Under the pieces are notes generated by a model. That model did not search any database. It was not told where the DNA came from and saw only the letters and a program-made list of their open reading frames with translations. From a virus (lineage: Duplodnaviria; Heunggongvirae; Uroviricota; Caudoviricetes): DNA of 45,686 bases. The position numbers and the translations under genes were made by a program. The DNA lies in IMG/VR virus record IMGVR_UViG_2718217885_000013; one strand, written 5' to 3'. Shown piece after piece: positions 1,557 through 40,154 of this stretch (position 1 is its first letter; every line of letters starts with the position of its first letter).

Positions 1557-1695
1557 TTAACCCCTTGTAATTCATTGCCATAATTGATTTAATTCACAAA
1601 TAAAACTATAACATGGTGAAATTAATAAAAAAAACACAGATGATGGGGCTAGAATTTACACACCACTTACCCTAAAGCTTTATGACTGGTGGGTT

Positions 1696-2280
1696 TTGGG
1701 AGTATCAAATCGGCTTGCATGGGGATGTCCTACAAAGGAACACCTTCTTCCACACTTTCTGGAACATTTAGGTAACAACCATCTGGATATTGGTGTTGGA
1801 ACTGGGTTTTACCTTACTCACGTACCTGAGAGTAGTCTGATATCTTTAATGGATTTGAACGAAGCTAGCCTGAACGCGGCATCTACAAGGGCTGGGGAAT
1901 CAAAAATTAAACATAAAATTAGCCATGATGTTTTTGAACCTTATCCCGCGGCGTTACATGGTCAATTTGATTCCATTTCCATGTTTTACCTTCTTCACTG
2001 CCTGCCTGGAAATATATCTACAAAAAGCTGTGTAATACGCAATGCGGCGCAGGCCTTAACTGACGATGGAACTCTATACGGAGCCACAATTCTTGGCGAT
2101 GGAGTTGTGCACAATAGCTTCGGTCAAAAACTGATGCGCATTTACAATCAGAAAGGCATCTTTTCAAACACAAAAGATTCCGAAGAAGGCTTAACACATA
2201 TACTCTCAGAGCATTTCGAGAATGTTAAAACCAAGGTTCAAGGTACTGTAGTAATGTTTTCCGCTTCAGGGAAAAAATAG
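1696..2280 (+). CDS. ybcY: Putative SAM-dependent methyltransferase (YbcY-like); start is TTG with no in-frame ATG near the 5' end, so possibly disrupted
   Basis: 194-aa ORF with a glycine-rich motif I-like segment (LDIGVGTGFYL); same position as the ybcY pseudogene in DLP12; the first codon of the track ORF is TTG. Confidence 0.45.
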   Translation: MGVSNRLAWGCPTKEHLLPHFLEHLGNNHLDIGVGTGFYLTHVPESSLISLMDLNEASLNAASTRAGESKIKHKISHDVFEPYPAALHGQFDSISMFYLLHCLPGNISTKSCVIRNAAQALTDDGTLYGATILGDGVVHNSFGQKLMRIYNQKGIFSNTKDSEEGLTHILSEHFENVKTKVQGTVVMFSASGKK

Positions 2281-2334: not shown

Positions 2335-2919
2335 TTACTCCCTGACAGGGTTCGTAGGCCACTCAATATCAGGTGCAGTTGATGTATCAACACGGTTCAG
2401 CAACACCCGATACTTTTTCCAGGCTTCCAGCAATGAGGTTTCTTCCTCCGTTGCGATTTCCAGATCTACAGCATCCTGAAGTGGCGCAATATGCTCACTG
2501 GCTACCTGCATCAGGCTGTTTTTTATTTCTTCCGCCTCCCGGATCCGGAACAGTTTTTCTGCTTCTGCATCTTTCACCCAGGCTGTGCCGTTCCACTTCT
2601 GAAACTCCCCTTCCGGCGATAACCAGGTAACATTTTCCGGTAACGGACCGAGTTCAGAAATAAATAACTCGTCCCCTGACGCTACGTCATAAACCGTTTT
2701 ACCCCGATGGTCTTCAACGAGATGCCACGATGCCTCATCACTGTTGAAAACAGCCACGAAGCCAGCCGGAATATCTGGCGGTGCAATATCGGTACTGTTT
2801 GCTGGCAGACCTGTATGAGGCGGAATATATGCATCACCTTCACCAATAAATTCATTAGTTCCGGCCAGCAGATTATAAATTGTTATGGTCCGTGGTTGTT
2901 CACTCATTCTGAATGCCAT
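2335..2919 (-). CDS. tfa: Tail fibre assembly protein Tfa
   Basis: 194-aa translation recognised as lambda/e14-type Tfa; directly downstream of stf. Confidence 0.9.
2389..2500. repeat. Direct repeat copy 2 (within tfa)
   Basis: Partner of 1341-1451. Confidence 0.7.
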
Positions 2920-26657: not shown

Positions 26658-27524
26658 CTAAGCGAGGTTCTTGTTTTCAAATTGTTCCGGACTGAGGCCG
26701 CCACACCAACTGTGCCGCCGCCACCGATTGTAATCACATTCGATATAATTAAACACCGTTGCCCGCATTATTTCCCGGCTGATAAAGTGTTCTCCATGGA
26801 TACATTCCACTTTCAGCGAATGAAAGAAGCTTTCCACGCAGGCATTATCGTAGCAGCAACCTTTTGCGCTCATACTTCCACGCAGATTATGCCGCTTCAG
26901 TTGCGCCTGATAATCTGCTGAACAGTACTGGCCTCCACGGTCCGTGTGAACGATAACGTTCCGGGGCCTCTTACGCCGCCACAGCGCCATCTGCAGGGCA
27001 TCGCAGGCCAGTTGCGCCGTCATGCGTGGCGACATTGACCAGCCAATAACGGCACGTGACCACAGGTCAATGACCACTGCCAGATACAGCCAGCCTTCAT
27101 CTGTACGTAAGTACGTGATGTCTCCTGCCCACTTCTGGTTCGGGCCACTGGCGTAAAAATCCTGCTCCAACAGATTTTCTGACACAGGCAGGCCGTGTGC
27201 GCGGTAGCTGACCGGGCTGAACTTCCGGGAGGCCTTTGCCCTCAGTCCCTGACGGCGCAGGCTTGCCGCCACGGTTTTTACGTTAAAGGGGTAACCCTGA
27301 GCACGCAGTTCATCCGTCAGGCGTGGGGCACCGTAACGCTGTTTTGACCGGGTAAAAGCCGCGAGGACAACGCTGTCGCAGTGTTGGCGGAACTGCTGAC
27401 GCGTGCTTATCCTTGTCCGCCGCTGACACCACGTATACCAGCCGCTGCGGGCCACCCGGAGCACGCGGCACATTGCTTTGATGCTGAACTCAGCCTGATG
27501 TTTTTCAATAAAGACATACTTCAT
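26658..27524 (-). CDS. insF: IS3 transposase OrfB (InsF)
   Basis: 288-aa DDE integrase-type translation recognised as IS3 InsF. Confidence 0.9.
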
Positions 27525-27820
27525 TTCAGGCGCTTCGCGAAGTATGTCGCGGCCTTTTGGAGGATAGCCAGCTCTTCATCCCGTTCTGCCAGCTGGCGTT
27601 TGAGACGTGCAATCTCGGTAGACATCTCCAGTTCACGTTCAGAAGACGTCTGCTGATTTTGCTGTTTACTGCGCCAGTTGTAGAGTTGTGATTCATACAG
27701 GCTGAGTTCACGGGCTGCGGCAGTAACACCGATGCGTTCAGCAAGCTTCAGGGCTTCACTGCGAAATTCAGGCGAATGCTGTTTACGGGGTTTTTTACTG
27801 GTTGATACTGTTTTTGTCAT
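27521..27820 (-). CDS. insE: IS3 transposase OrfA (InsE)
   Basis: 99 aa from [25 protein letters not shown]; HTH; overlaps insF in the -1 frame. Confidence 0.9.
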
Positions 27821-33731: not shown

Positions 33732-33894
33732 GATTCCTCCTTGCTGCCAGTCGCAACCATTTTTTATCAACCAGGCTAGCGGTATATCCGAGCAGTGTTG
33801 GTATTTCGGATGGCTTCAGCTCAGGTTTACGCTTACGACGATTTGGTACTTTGTAGATGTGTCCGTTCATGACACGAATAAGCGGTGTAGCCAT
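33724..33894 (-). CDS. ninE: NinE-like protein
   Basis: 56-aa ORF translated by hand ([56 protein letters not shown]); tightly coupled to ybcN (TAATG) and ybcO (ATGGCTGA); below the track cutoff. Confidence 0.75.
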   Translation of the reverse strand: MATPLIRVMNGHIYKVPNRRKRKPELKPSEIPTLLGYTASLVDKKWLRLAARRNHG

Positions 33895-34349
33895 TACGCC
33901 TCCTGCTTGTCGCGCAGCAGCTGGAACTCGCAGCTCTGCGGAATAGTCAGGTGGCAGCCAATATTCATCGCCCAGGCTTCAACCTTACACAGGAAGACAT
34001 ACATCTCTCCGGTATCAAGATCGGAGGTATGGCGTAACGACTGGATAGTAGTGATTTCGCCGGTTACGACATCAACCAGGTCCTTGGTTTCATAACCGAG
34101 GTATGTGTGTTTGAGAGCATCTTTTACCCATGCTGCGGTAGCGAACGATTTCCCCCTGCTGATGAGGTATTCACTGATTTCGCTGTACCACATGTGGCTG
34201 AGTGCATTCTGGGAAAGACTGCGTCTCTCTCGCCACGGTTTAAGCACCATGCGAAAGCATTTGCCGTCTTCCAGATAAGGCTGGATCTGCTGACCGATAG
34301 CGGTGAAGTTACCGCGATGCAATTTGATGCCATCTTGTGGGAGGTTCAC
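33894..34349 (-). CDS. ybcN: YbcN-like protein (DUF1367-type)
   Basis: 151 aa; GTG start preceded by a GGAGGTG Shine-Dalgarno. Confidence 0.8.
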
Positions 34350-34555
34350 GCTTCACCTCCACAGAGGTCAAACGCTAGATGCAAAGAATTGCAGGTGCAT
34401 TTCTGCATCTGTGAAAGGAGAAGATAGTTTGGATTGTATGTGCGCATAAACGTCCCCGTTTAGCGCAGAAGTCACCGGAGTTGTTCAGGCTCCGATTACT
34501 TAATTATGGCAAGTTGATTATCGCAAATCAAAGGTTTTAATTGTGCTTTATTCTT

Positions 34556-34756
34556 TCAAGCGTTTCCTTCATACCAAAGCCTATAAAGTTTTTCTTCTTC
34601 GTTTGGGTTAATAGGCTCACCATGTTTTAATTTTTCAGTGTACAAAATTGTTGAACAAATCGCGGAAGTTAATCCAGTGATCGCCATCTGCTGCAGATCG
34701 GATTTTTGTGTCCCCCCCAACAGACGATCTCCCATCCATGTAATAATTGTATCCAT
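34556..34756 (-). CDS. Hypothetical 66-aa protein in the moron slot
   Basis: ORF only; no family recognised; preceded on its strand by about 300 nt with no ORF. Confidence 0.35.
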   Translation of the reverse strand: MDTIITWMGDRLLGGTQKSDLQQMAITGLTSAICSTILYTEKLKHGEPINPNEEEKLYRLWYEGNA

Positions 34757-35343
34757 GCTTCAGCCCTTCTTAGTAAATAGTGTGTAGGGCGACTGAAGGA
34801 CCGAGTTTATGCTTTTTCGCATTGCTTTCAGTTAGTAGACCGGTATCGCACCGGAAACAATCCTACGGCAAATTGGTTGTCTGACCTCTCGGTTTTTCGT
34901 GCATTAACCGATACCCACTACAGTCTCGGCGAAAGCTGCACACCCCCAAGGTGTACTGGTAGCACTCGGCACAGCCTAGCGCGCCACTTTCTTCTCACTA
35001 TCCAGTCTAATTTTATCCCCTAGTCAGACACTCAGATGTAGTGCTCCGCAGCGGCATGCGGGGGAATACAAAAACTCGGACAAAATTGGGCCCTCCTTTT
35101 TGAATCACTCGCGGGGATGTAGTTATTAATACATGGGAAAAGATCTGTTTTCAAATCCAACATTATATGGTTTCAATACCACGGGGTGGCTATGTGTTTC
35201 TCATTATTATTTACAATCTACTGTAATCGCTCCGAACGCAAATGCGTCAATACTCGAATCAACTGATCATCCTGCCACGACTGAAATCTCAAATAGGCCG
35301 TTTCTCAAGTAAGAGATTTTGAATGCATTATTGGCTACTGAAA

Positions 35344-35368
35344 TAAAAAACCCAGCACCAACTGGGTT
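35344..35368 (-). terminator. Intrinsic terminator directly after the 164-aa secreted-protein gene
   Basis: Minus strand AACCCAG-uuggug-CUGGGUU followed by UUUUUAUUU. Confidence 0.65.
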
Positions 35369-35385
35369 CATATGAAATTTTTTTG

Positions 35386-35880
35386 TCATTTCCAATTGCA
35401 AGACTGTGAAATTTTTTCCACAACCTTATCAATCTCAGACAAGTCAAACTCAACTACTTGCATAGTTGATCCATAAGGTTCAAACCCAAAAATAGCTTTT
35501 TTATGCTTAGCCAAGGTCTTTATAAATTGTATTGGTTGTGGAGCAAATGCAGAATCACCGCCTTCCCCACCTCCCCAAGCACTCTTGACCGGCTTTCCGC
35601 CATCTAACCGCACTGTAATTCTTGGGTTGTCCGAACCCATATAATCATTGAATGATAAATAGGCATCTGTTTTGTTATCACTACAACGCAACACCAGTGA
35701 AGTTGCACGATCAGTACCTGCTTTGTTATATGAATCTGGTGATAAATTAAGAGCCACAAAGTCAGTCTGGTCAGTCATTTTATTTATCTCAGACTTTGTT
35801 ATCCACGGCCCTAACTTCTCTACACCAGCATTTGCAGTAAACGAGGCACTTATGACAAAGGCTATAATAAATTTTCTCAT
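35386..35880 (-). CDS. Hypothetical secreted/periplasmic protein (moron)
   Basis: 164 aa with a typical Sec signal peptide (MRKFIIAFVISASFTANA); own terminator; no family recognised. Confidence 0.6.
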   Translation of the reverse strand: MRKFIIAFVISASFTANAGVEKLGPWITKSEINKMTDQTDFVALNLSPDSYNKAGTDRATSLVLRCSDNKTDAYLSFNDYMGSDNPRITVRLDGGKPVKSAWGGGEGGDSAFAPQPIQFIKTLAKHKKAIFGFEPYGSTMQVVEFDLSEIDKVVEKISQSCNWK

Positions 35881-36026
35881 AACCCTATCTCCTTGGATTT
35901 AAAGAACTAAATATTATCAAGTCTCTTGCCACTAGAAAACCCACTTTATTTCCAAACTCTGATGGCATTCCTGAAAATCCGCTTCATACTCACTTGCCCC
36001 GCCCTATCATCCTGAGTAGCTAACCG

Positions 36027-36200
36027 TTAAACAAACGTTCGCCAGACCTTACCATCAATGACCAGGATTCCTGCCCGCGCCATTTTTGCCGCAGCCTGAT
36101 TTATGCTGGTTAATGTCACACCTGTTGTCGCAGCAACGTCCGGCGCACAGAAGCTCTTGTGCGTCTCCAGATAATGAATAATTGCCTCTTTGCCCGTTAT
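36027..36200 (-). pseudogene. ren: ren remnant (start codon lost, truncated)
   Basis: Hand translation ITGKEAIIHYLETHKSFCAPDVAATTGVTLTSINQAAAKMARAGILVIDGKVWRTFV matches the lambda Ren N-terminus; the lambda ATG is ATA here and the frame stops after about 57 codons. Confidence 0.7.
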
Positions 36201-37910: not shown

Positions 37911-38450
37911 TCATATTGCCCCCAGCATGGTGGTCACCATCGCCATTAATGGACCAGCCAGATCCGGGTCCACACGAAACATCGACACAATACCTTCACT
38001 CATTTCCTTCAGTTTCTGGTGGCGTGGTGCGTTGAGAATGACAGCCTGTTTTGCCTCACTGAGTTCCTTTTCCATTTCAGCCAACCGAGTCATGAAGCTA
38101 TCCTGCTCAACCAGGTAACCGCGATATTCCAGCGGTAGTACCGCCAGAATTGCCGGGGTCAGTTCACGCACGTTATTTCGGTATTTTTCAGAATCGAATT
38201 TGTTATCGAGGAAGCGGAACAGCTTCTGGCGTGCACGGCTGACATCATCAGGGAAATCGATGGTGCCGTCGCCCTGCTCCCGATACTCATTCACAATGAG
38301 TGCGGCAACGACATCCTGATTATCTACAGCCGACCAGGCGCGGACGGCATCACGGATTTTTTCGTGGCCTGGAGCTTGTTTTGTTTGAGAACGATTTATC
38401 ACCGCAGTCGGAATAAATCCGCTAGTCTGTTGGTATGTAAGTGGTTGCAT
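37911..38450 (-). CDS. YdaT-like protein in the cII position
   Basis: 179 aa; AAGGAG Shine-Dalgarno; segment LTPAILAVLPLEYR recalls Rac YdaT; downstream of the Cro-like gene. Confidence 0.55.
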   Translation of the reverse strand: MQPLTYQQTSGFIPTAVINRSQTKQAPGHEKIRDAVRAWSAVDNQDVVAALIVNEYREQGDGTIDFPDDVSRARQKLFRFLDNKFDSEKYRNNVRELTPAILAVLPLEYRGYLVEQDSFMTRLAEMEKELSEAKQAVILNAPRHQKLKEMSEGIVSMFRVDPDLAGPLMAMVTTMLGAI

Positions 38451-39773: not shown

Positions 39774-40154
39774 ATGAGAAAAATCCTAATCGCTGTCATG
39801 ATGGCATCTGTATTGGCTGGGTGTGCTTCTTCAGGCAACCAGCAACTCAAAAATGAAACTGAAATTAGTGTCCAGTCTAAACTTCAGGAAGGTAAAACAA
39901 CCAAGAATGAGGTTAAATCTTACTTTGGTTCTCCTGATGCTGTTTCATATACTGACAGTGGAAACGAGATCTGGAAGTACGCCTTTGCAAAAGTAAAAGT
40001 TAATGGCACCACTTTTATTCCATTCTATGGATTATTCCATAATGGAACGAACGGTACGAAAAAAGAACTTACTATTCTTTTTAACGATGACACGATTAAG
40101 AAATACACAATGTCAGAAACCCAAATAAACTCGAAATCAGGTTGGGCTGACTGA
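39774..40154 (+). CDS. Lipoprotein with BamE (SmpA/OmlA)-like pattern, in the rex position
   Basis: 126 aa; lipobox LAGC; pattern G-K-T-x-x-E-V...FGSP...W-x-Y...LTILFN resembles BamE; has its own candidate -10 TATAAT at 39753-39758. Confidence 0.6.
   Translation: MRKILIAVMMASVLAGCASSGNQQLKNETEISVQSKLQEGKTTKNEVKSYFGSPDAVSYTDSGNEIWKYAFAKVKVNGTTFIPFYGLFHNGTNGTKKELTILFNDDTIKKYTMSETQINSKSGWAD

Follow-up and report, generated by a model that had tools for sequence, protein, structure and literature searches.

The window, that is, the 45,686-nucleotide stretch of DNA recorded as IMGVR_UViG_2718217885_000013, holds in a segment without a convincing open reading frame (ORF) a 329-nucleotide structured noncoding RNA (ncRNA). 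We would describe it as a new RNA family, unannotated in databases and notable for its tractable hosts, the lambdoid phages of Escherichia coli and Klebsiella. The window matches E. coli 09-00049 (NZ_CP015228) with 100% identity and corresponds to a complete lambdoid prophage at the DLP12 site, which runs between intD and appY and has its head and tail genes intact. The RNA core (34790-35118, minus strand; AUCCCCGCGAG...CCUUCAGUCG), which we delimited with nhmmer, alignment and RNAalifold, is composed of two domains closed by long-range helices. It lies in the slot between ren and ybcN, which is with high probability a recombination mosaic comprising, in minus-strand order, a moron encoding a protein of 164 amino acids (aa), the stump of an antirepressor-like gene, the structured ncRNA gene and a truncated copy of a phrog_12412 gene. 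An earlier note on the window had pointed to this slot as the likeliest place for an uncharacterized function. The slot was correctly flagged, but the interest turned out to lie in the stretch that had been taken as empty: no ORF longer than 59 aa occurs between 34757 and 35385 on either strand, in agreement with the absence of a convincing ORF stated in the note, yet these approximately 630 bp are not filler, as they hold the RNA gene.

A megablast comparison between the slot and phage genomes returned two E. coli phages that match the 66-aa ORF of the slot and the ORF-less stretch, and two Klebsiella phages that match only around 335 bp in the middle of the latter, with 78-79% identity. Between E. 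coli and the Klebsiella phage Kp4856-1 this 335-bp core is 78% identical and both flanking genes are different. In the Klebsiella phage, the conserved block is followed by an intrinsic terminator, on the strand equivalent to the minus strand of the window. Exact-pattern scans with three different conserved blocks retrieved each time the same set of approximately 65 IMG/VR contigs, and a scan of metagenomes added 28 further loci; the homology of all of them was confirmed by nhmmer. A relaxed two-block pattern, used for an additional viral scan, returned no further members. Overall, 87 full-length copies from IMG/VR, metagenomes and phages correspond to 31 distinct sequences, all of 327-329 nucleotides (nt) from AUCCCCGCGAG to CAGUCG, which form 14 lineages below 97% identity and have a lowest pairwise identity of 69%.

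The first fold model, derived from the 31 sequences with RNAalifold, contained 83 pairs, 16 of which with compensatory double changes, and the refined consensus, derived from the 14 lineages, contains 96 pairs in 18 helices. Over the 31 sequences, standard pairs account for 96.2% of the cells, compared to 34-44% when the 3' partners are slid by one to three columns. Changes on both sides are detectable in 22 of the 96 pairs and in 149 cells (3-8 pairs and 13-25 cells in the slid controls), and the covariation score is 0.220, compared to about 0.05 for slid partners. The helix CCGAGAC.../...GUAUCGG, for example, varies as CCUUUGAU/AUUGAAGG, CCGAUGUC/GACGUCGG and CCAAAGCC/GGUUUUGG; column pair 131/187 is A-U in 20 sequences and G-C in 11, and column pair 271/277 can be A-U, U-A or C-G. 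A brute-force search for further covarying column pairs was swamped by phylogenetic signal and was discarded. Several stretches of the RNA are unpaired and invariant (UUGGAUAGUG, GUGUCUGAC, the CAGACA loop and CCCCCGCAUGCC), which suggests that these nucleotides may be involved in tertiary contacts or in the binding of a protein or ligand partner.

The paired cells include 345 G.U and only 11 A.C, and this imbalance fixes the strand of the RNA. The alignment folds much better on the RNA strand (alifold energy of -72.9 kcal/mol) than as its reverse complement (-45.5 kcal/mol). Across the lineages, indels of 1-2 nt and stops break every reading frame, so that none is conserved. We rejected a protein-coding reading of the ORF-less stretch, as the longest frames differ among lineages and are interrupted by indels. 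The RNA displays what is generally expected of a structured ncRNA, namely compensatory changes, a single strand and no conserved ORF, and contains no relevant tandem or dispersed repeats (Tandem Repeats Finder detected no array at a minimum score of 30). When compared across its lineages, it is shown to be a discrete module that purifying selection keeps to a specific fold on the minus strand.

Within the 5' domain of the RNA (35071-35098, minus strand), a near-invariant and perfect AAGGAGG is followed after 9-10 nt by UUG and a 19-codon frame (MSEFLYSPACRCGALHLSV). This short ORF, which is frameshifted in lineages L083 and L084 and whose variable part coincides with a covarying helix, is unlikely to be coding. 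The anti-Shine-Dalgarno sequence of the ribosome could be a binding partner of the conserved GGAGG.

In a scan of the whole window with Rfam 15 at gathering thresholds, the sole match was IS009 and none overlapped the RNA. Permissive scans of three divergent RNA lineages with 4227 Rfam families returned only chance-level matches (E > 0.8), and we met no account of this RNA in the literature, searched both by topic and by sequence words. Of 5426 complete E. coli genomes, 158 (approximately 3%) carry a full copy of the RNA, one in each, and in none of these 158 genomes does any annotation overlap it. The RNA is also carried by Turner and IdasGreatGrand, which are viable plaque-forming phages, and phages related to the loci of divergent lineages infect Klebsiella, Enterobacter, Escherichia and Salmonella. 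One E. coli genome hosts a divergent variant with 82% identity (NZ_LS992185.1, 2305227-2305543), indicating that more than one RNA lineage circulates in E. coli. No match was found in the plasmid collection. Among the GTDB species representatives, a contig scan with an 18-mer gave only 10 matches, all in unrelated taxa; when the RNA profile was run on these 10 loci with nhmmer, one marginal match of 36 nt (E 0.0035) and no real match were obtained.

The neighbors of the RNA change from one prophage to another. The ORF-less stretch occurs by itself in 180 E. coli genomes, and in approximately 100 of these the upstream neighbor is a different one, an antirepressor-like gene of the P22AR-C/Roi type with ybcK and emrE before it, as in phage Turner. 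Around 100 genomes have the RNA but lack the 164-aa gene. Other upstream genes encode a DUF550-type pyrophosphohydrolase, among others. Since the parts of the slot are found in different combinations across genomes, the slot is a mosaic whose parts travel separately, and the RNA is shown by its neighborhoods to move independently of adjacent genes among lambdoid prophages of Enterobacteriaceae. When the window is compared with phage Turner, identity is 99.1% in the RNA core, 98.4% in the promoter, 92.9% in the 66-aa ORF and 89.4% in the antirepressor remnant. Within the slot, conservation is thus highest in the RNA and its promoter.

Downstream of the RNA we found six unrelated gene families, with pairwise hhalign probabilities below 2%: phrog_12412 (118 aa), a protein of 178-191 aa with a hydrophobic segment at either terminus, phrog_27260 (183 aa), phrog_26388 (177 aa), DUF1367 and a 95-aa orphan. 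Pfam, PADLOC and NCBIfam assigned no function to representative proteins of this downstream cargo, and the matching PHROGs are all of unknown function. In every context a same-strand ORF starts within 35-115 nt after the RNA, which is the position of a riboswitch in a 5' untranslated region. In phage Turner, this ORF is the 118-aa phrog_12412 gene, which follows the RNA. Among sequenced phages, the full-length gene is present only in two E. coli phages, both carriers of the RNA; a relative with 25% identity lies in the lysis-terminase region of a Klebsiella phage without the RNA.

In the window, the downstream gene is the 66-aa ORF (34556-34756, minus strand), a truncated derivative (phrog_8527) of the 118-aa phrog_12412 gene. 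Its N-terminal 62 residues or so align to the protein of phage Turner. A deletion between the direct repeats TTGGTATGAAG has removed the remainder and shifted the frame, which now ends with ...YEGNA before the stop, and the ORF does not match the full-length phrog_12412 profile. This shortened version is frequent enough for PHROGs to list it separately, as phrog_8527. At about 34708-34716 (minus strand), a stretch of seven G's varies in length among otherwise near-identical copies, leading to start-shifted variants of 59-60 aa, and these changes look like slipped-strand variation in a decaying gene. The 66-aa ORF, which had been listed as cargo, is therefore not an intact gene but the remnant of a deletion and frameshift.

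As for transcription, we recognized a promoter-like element on the minus strand (35126-35154), composed of TTGAAA (35154-35149), a 17-nt spacer and TATTAA (35131-35126), and separated from the core by 7 nt. In nearly all lineages, a TTGAAA, TTGAAT or TTGTAT hexamer begins 34-35 nt upstream of the first conserved base and is followed, after a 17-nt spacer, by an A/T-rich hexamer (TATTAA, TTTAAT or TTAAAT) that ends 6-7 nt upstream. This geometry is kept across the lineages despite differing sequence. We infer that the RNA is transcribed from its own promoter of the sigma70 type, probably starting at or near the A of AUCCCC. At the other end, 13 of 23 distinct downstream contexts contain a canonical terminator (such as CCGCC-UCAU-GGCGG-UAUUUUUUU) that begins 8-12 nt beyond the final helix, and the ribosome-binding site of the next ORF lies within about 25 nt of that terminator. 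In copies L070 and L103, unrelated DNA replaces the upstream sequence, -35 region included, up to approximately 20 nt before the RNA start, which suggests a recombination joint within the RNA promoter. In another IMG/VR copy of the RNA (L045:3037-3372), homology stops abruptly after about position 306, and the replacing sequence opens with an ORF that, judged by eye, resembles the transposase of an insertion sequence (IS).

Given these data, we favor a structured RNA that is independent of its cargo, and consider a cis-acting leader as the main rival. The RNA would be transcribed in the prophage from its own promoter, whatever the cargo. In most lineages the transcript would end at the intrinsic terminator 8-12 nt past the last helix, and in the E. 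coli lineage it would continue into the downstream ORF. The RNA may be an 'RNA moron' that serves the phage in conflicts with the host or with other phages. As a side effect, its promoter and a leaky terminator might set a low level of expression of the downstream cargo gene. That the RNA works in trans as a folded RNA is a proposal to which we attach low confidence. We favor it because the cargo families are unrelated and the terminator stems vary with no recognizable conserved alternative pairing, and because three contexts have no terminator and the ORF of the window is decaying while the RNA is intact.

Several observations weigh against this interpretation. The family is narrow, as the three patterns retrieved the same 65 IMG/VR contigs and GTDB representatives lack it. 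Many of the compensatory changes are consequently inherited rather than independent, so that the shuffle control, in which 0 of 500 shuffles reached the observed pairing values, overstates the significance. The minimum free energy (MFE) of single sequences is no better than that of shuffled ones (z = -0.48), a comparison that is uninformative. A long-range pairing between GUCUGAC (91-97) and GUCAGAC (236-242, in a hairpin) is a possibility, and this candidate pseudoknot has a single compensatory event behind it, in L084. Regarding transcription, the proposed promoter escaped a strict consensus scan and for this reason remains putative, and its -10 hexamer is imperfect (TATTAA/TTTAAT). The start site and the 3' end of the RNA are predictions read from the sequence. 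The E. coli lineage and two more lack a terminator, and their next ORF follows 35-40 nt past the core. Moreover, there is no room for another promoter before the following ORF, an arrangement that a cis leader would explain equally well.

An alternative source of function in the slot is its proteins: on the reading of the earlier note, the 164-aa and 66-aa products would act in lysogenic conversion or defense. This reading is possible, although we regard it as doubtful, and it is compatible with the RNA explanation. The 164-aa gene (35386-35880, minus strand) is an intact, self-terminated moron, and its product is a Sec-secreted beta-sandwich protein, VasI/'TagO'-like according to Pfam and to the Prokaryotic Genome Annotation Pipeline (PGAP), with an IalB-like fold and assigned to phrog_1848. 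The signal peptide and the terminator reported in the earlier note are both there: the N-terminus MRKFIIAFVISASFTANA|G, read directly from the sequence, is a typical Sec signal, and the gene is followed by an intrinsic terminator (35340-35369, minus strand) with a 9-bp stem GAACCCAGTTGGTGCTGGGTTT and a T-run at 35369-35348, whose GC-containing hairpin was also detected as a RyhB-terminator-like hairpin. The coordinates of both ORFs were also right. The claim that neither protein matches a family did not hold, as the 66-aa ORF is phrog_8527, the short form of phrog_12412, and the 164-aa protein matches Pfam VasI (PF11319), albeit with a marginal score (27.4 bits against a gathering threshold of 26.5, residues 56-163), is named TagO by PGAP and belongs to phrog_1848, which PHROGs lists as of unknown function.

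Homologues of the 164-aa protein, 30 in number and with 54-80% identity, occur in prophages of many Enterobacteriaceae (Salmonella, Enterobacter, Citrobacter, Pantoea, Serratia and Klebsiella), and PF11319 is precomputed on them. VasI/TagO proteins are expected to be encoded in or next to type VI secretion clusters, whereas the copy in the window is a prophage moron between ren and the RNA, and the Klebsiella homologue lies between prophage tail genes and not in a type VI secretion cluster. Structural superposition on the solved IalB (PDB 3dtd) revealed the IalB fold, with 9% sequence identity. NCBIfam and PADLOC gave no match for this protein, a sequence search of PDB was empty, and Foldseek returned nothing significant against PDB; a single-sequence AlphaFold2 model was too poor (predicted local distance difference test score of 48) and was not used. 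We conclude that the protein is a secreted, presumably periplasmic beta-sandwich of the IalB/VasI-like type, encoded repeatedly by prophages as a moron. The presence of invariant residues and of a confident fold suggests that it is functional. Against a role of the two proteins in the function sought here, PADLOC recognized no protein in or beside the slot, the 164-aa family is neither private nor unrecognized, the 66-aa ORF is what a deletion and a frameshift have left of a gene and is gathering slippage variants, and nothing links the two ORFs functionally, with the RNA being present in the approximately 100 genomes without the 164-aa gene.

The main rival, which we judge unlikely, is that the RNA acts in cis as a riboswitch-, T-box- or attenuator-like leader that gates the interchangeable downstream cargo through the terminator. 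The cargo could then be a toxic or defensive protein that is kept off until a signal appears. The layout, in which promoter, 329-nt RNA, terminator, about 25 nt, ribosome-binding site and ORF follow one another, keeps this reading alive, and the contexts of clusters 16, 26 and 35 have no space for a second promoter. Like riboswitches and T-boxes, the RNA is a long structured 5' element, mostly followed by a terminator and then an ORF, and it has many nucleotides that are unpaired yet invariant, as is typical of ligand-binding aptamers. Several cargo genes encode small orphan proteins, one with the two terminal hydrophobic segments. A same-strand ORF always follows the RNA, although this is uninformative because the genes of this operon all have one orientation. 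Other features do not fit with a leader. Riboswitch classes control functionally related genes, while the six families found here share no pathway or function and include an ordinary nin-region gene, DUF1367. The RNA has no match in Rfam, the terminator stems vary (CCGCC/CCACC), and no conserved alternative pairing with the aptamer, nor a conserved alternative between terminator and antiterminator, was recognized on reading the sequences of the contexts. Three contexts, including that of E. coli, are entirely without terminator, and the truncated ORF downstream is decaying and less conserved than the RNA.

Even less likely, and speculative, is that the RNA represents a new class of phage RNA with a complex fold, in the bacterial family that has been studied best, and is a sensor or effector made of RNA only. 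In one variant it would sense a signal of infection or stress and open the terminator, being a portable 'ignition module' for whichever toxic or defensive cargo has recombined behind it; in another, it would self-assemble or sequester a ligand, comparable to ROOL/GOLLD.

We consider it improbable that the locus is a toxin-antitoxin or abortive-infection pair of a type III-like kind, in which the abundant RNA would neutralize a toxic protein encoded downstream. In ToxIN the locus is laid out as toxI-terminator-toxN, and the toxin mRNA would be produced here in the same way, by read-through of the terminator. The order of promoter, ncRNA, intrinsic terminator and small ORF, seen in 13 of the 23 contexts, and the location in an accessory-gene hot spot of a mobile element, here a prophage, resemble such systems. 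The lineage of the window has no terminator between RNA and protein gene. On the other hand, type III antitoxins are tandem repeats of 30-40 nt processed by the toxin, while this RNA is a single complex fold with no tandem repeats. Pfam and PADLOC scans found no downstream protein similar to ToxN, AbiQ, CptN or TenpN or to any PADLOC model. Type III antitoxins are also specific for their toxin, whereas one conserved RNA is associated here with six unrelated proteins and is intact where the ORF is truncated.

Finally, there is very little probability that no functional RNA exists and that the conserved block is a DNA-level element (a module boundary, a recombination linker or a protein-binding site) or a decayed coding gene, since the mosaic joints at or near both its ends, the unremarkable MFE z-score and the antisense frames that are open across the whole element in 7 of the 31 variants contrast with compensatory changes that hold 96% of the cells paired, with a G.U excess (345 against 11 A.C) expected only for the single-stranded transcript of one strand, with a length fixed at 327-329 nt although indels of 1-2 nt break every frame, and with the lack of internal repeats.

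Also in light of these alternatives, the cargo-independent structured RNA that we favor finds its nearest known kind in large structured RNAs of phages and prophages such as GOLLD and ROOL, which are likewise borne by phages or prophages, have multi-helix folds supported by covariation, and have no known protein partner or function (PMC12286853). Many members of GOLLD are longer than 800 nt (PMC12286853), whereas our RNA is 329 nt long, matches no Rfam model and has lambdoid hosts in Enterobacteriaceae. Genes for tRNAs are frequently adjacent to GOLLD and ROOL, while the tRNA/tmRNA scan detected neither type of gene in the window. Since sequence, size, host range and tRNA association all differ, the RNA is not a member of GOLLD or ROOL. 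Lambdoid phages are known to encode other ncRNAs, namely HK022 put, oop, DicF, IsrK, AgvB/AsxR and StxS, some of which are expressed in lysogens. These RNAs of approximately 50-150 nt act by base pairing or, in cis, by binding RNA polymerase, and our RNA is far larger and composed of multiple domains; it matches none of the known lambdoid RNAs present in Rfam 15. A retron msr/msd was rejected, as neither the annotation of the whole prophage nor the representative neighbors that were scanned, a subset of the neighboring ORFs, include a reverse transcriptase.

The remaining parts of the slot further document its mosaic nature. Upstream of the RNA, positions 35304-35218 (minus strand) retain 28 codons from the 3' end of a Roi/P22AR-C-type antirepressor-like gene, as seen from the comparison of their translation in the window (ETAYLRFQSWQDDQLIRVLTHLRSERLQ, then stop) and in phage Turner (RETAHVKFRPWQDDKWSRVLPHLRSDRLQ, then stop). 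The antirepressor-like protein is intact in related prophages, and in the approximately 100 E. coli genomes mentioned above this stretch is covered by an annotated 'P22AR C-terminal domain-containing protein'. The joint near 35306, about 190 bp before the core, indicates that the 164-aa moron replaced the rest of the antirepressor-like gene there. A second mosaic joint lies just beyond the last helix of the RNA.

The slot had been described as a variable moron site with a content different from that of E. coli K-12, and this is the case: at the same position, DLP12 of K-12 has renD-emrE-ylcJ-ybcK-ybcL-ybcM-ylcH-ybcN. The description of the cargo as private was instead wrong, as 58 of the 5426 complete E. 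coli genomes carry the entire 1681-bp slot with at least 99% identity, and further genomes carry parts of it. The slot is nevertheless rare, and no part of it has a characterized function, so that the outcome named in the earlier note as a refutation (clear homology of both proteins to characterized housekeeping families, with the same cargo in most related prophages) did not occur. The limits of the slot required some adjustment. The right end of the interval that had been given to it falls in the remnant of ren, a pseudogene with a frameshift and an internal stop that PGAP annotates in the identical record (about 35932-36200, minus strand) and that forms the right boundary; the ATG of lambda ren is ATA in the window, and the frame ends at the stop at 36027 after ...GKVWRTFV. 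The left boundary is formed by a ylcH-like 33-aa ORF (34346-34447, minus strand), a hypothetical protein according to PGAP, and by a conserved segment upstream of ninB; this ORF has a position equivalent to that of ylcH in K-12. It is followed by the flanking NinB-family gene ybcN (33894-34349, minus strand; YbcN in PGAP, 22.1 bits with Pfam NinB).

The ylcH/ybcN-proximal 183 bp (34350-34532) are all that more than 2800 E. coli genomes have in common with the slot. This segment, which contains the 33-aa ORF and its upstream sequence, is found with 90-95% identity in these genomes and in many lambdoid phages. In the record of phage 82 (X92588), the matching stretch is annotated with -35 and -10 signals and a 'possible regulator-binding site'.

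Elsewhere in the prophage, we observed some features unrelated to the slot. The IS009 small RNA (2378-2576, minus strand; 227.9 bits), the only match of the window at Rfam gathering thresholds, falls by conversion of coordinates inside the tail fiber assembly gene near the end of the prophage. At the same tail-fiber end, there is a class I S-adenosylmethionine-dependent methyltransferase gene (1621-2280, plus strand), and a copy of IS3 (26658-27820) is inserted between ybcW and ylcI; these two are further accessory or mobile insertions. A 179-aa 'toxin YdaT domain-containing protein' (37911-38450, minus strand) occupies the position of cII, between the cro-like and O-like genes. Next to the S24 repressor gene there is a gene for a 126-aa lipoprotein annotated as 'BamE' (39774-40154, plus strand). 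The position beside the repressor gene is the usual place of N in lambdoid phages, and no N-like antiterminator is annotated anywhere in the prophage.

Large structured RNAs without known function are rare, and those borne by phages, such as GOLLD and ROOL, come mostly from organisms that are difficult to manipulate. As the RNA described here resides in lambdoid prophages of E. coli and Klebsiella and in plaque-forming phages, its expression, structure, partners and phenotype can be tested with lambda genetics. Our results also indicate that 'ORF-less' gaps in prophage slots, such as this one, which is blank in the annotation of all 158 carriers, can harbor the most conserved element of the slot. 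If it is true that the RNA controls or cooperates with the interchangeable cargo, this would represent a new way for phages to deploy accessory genes.

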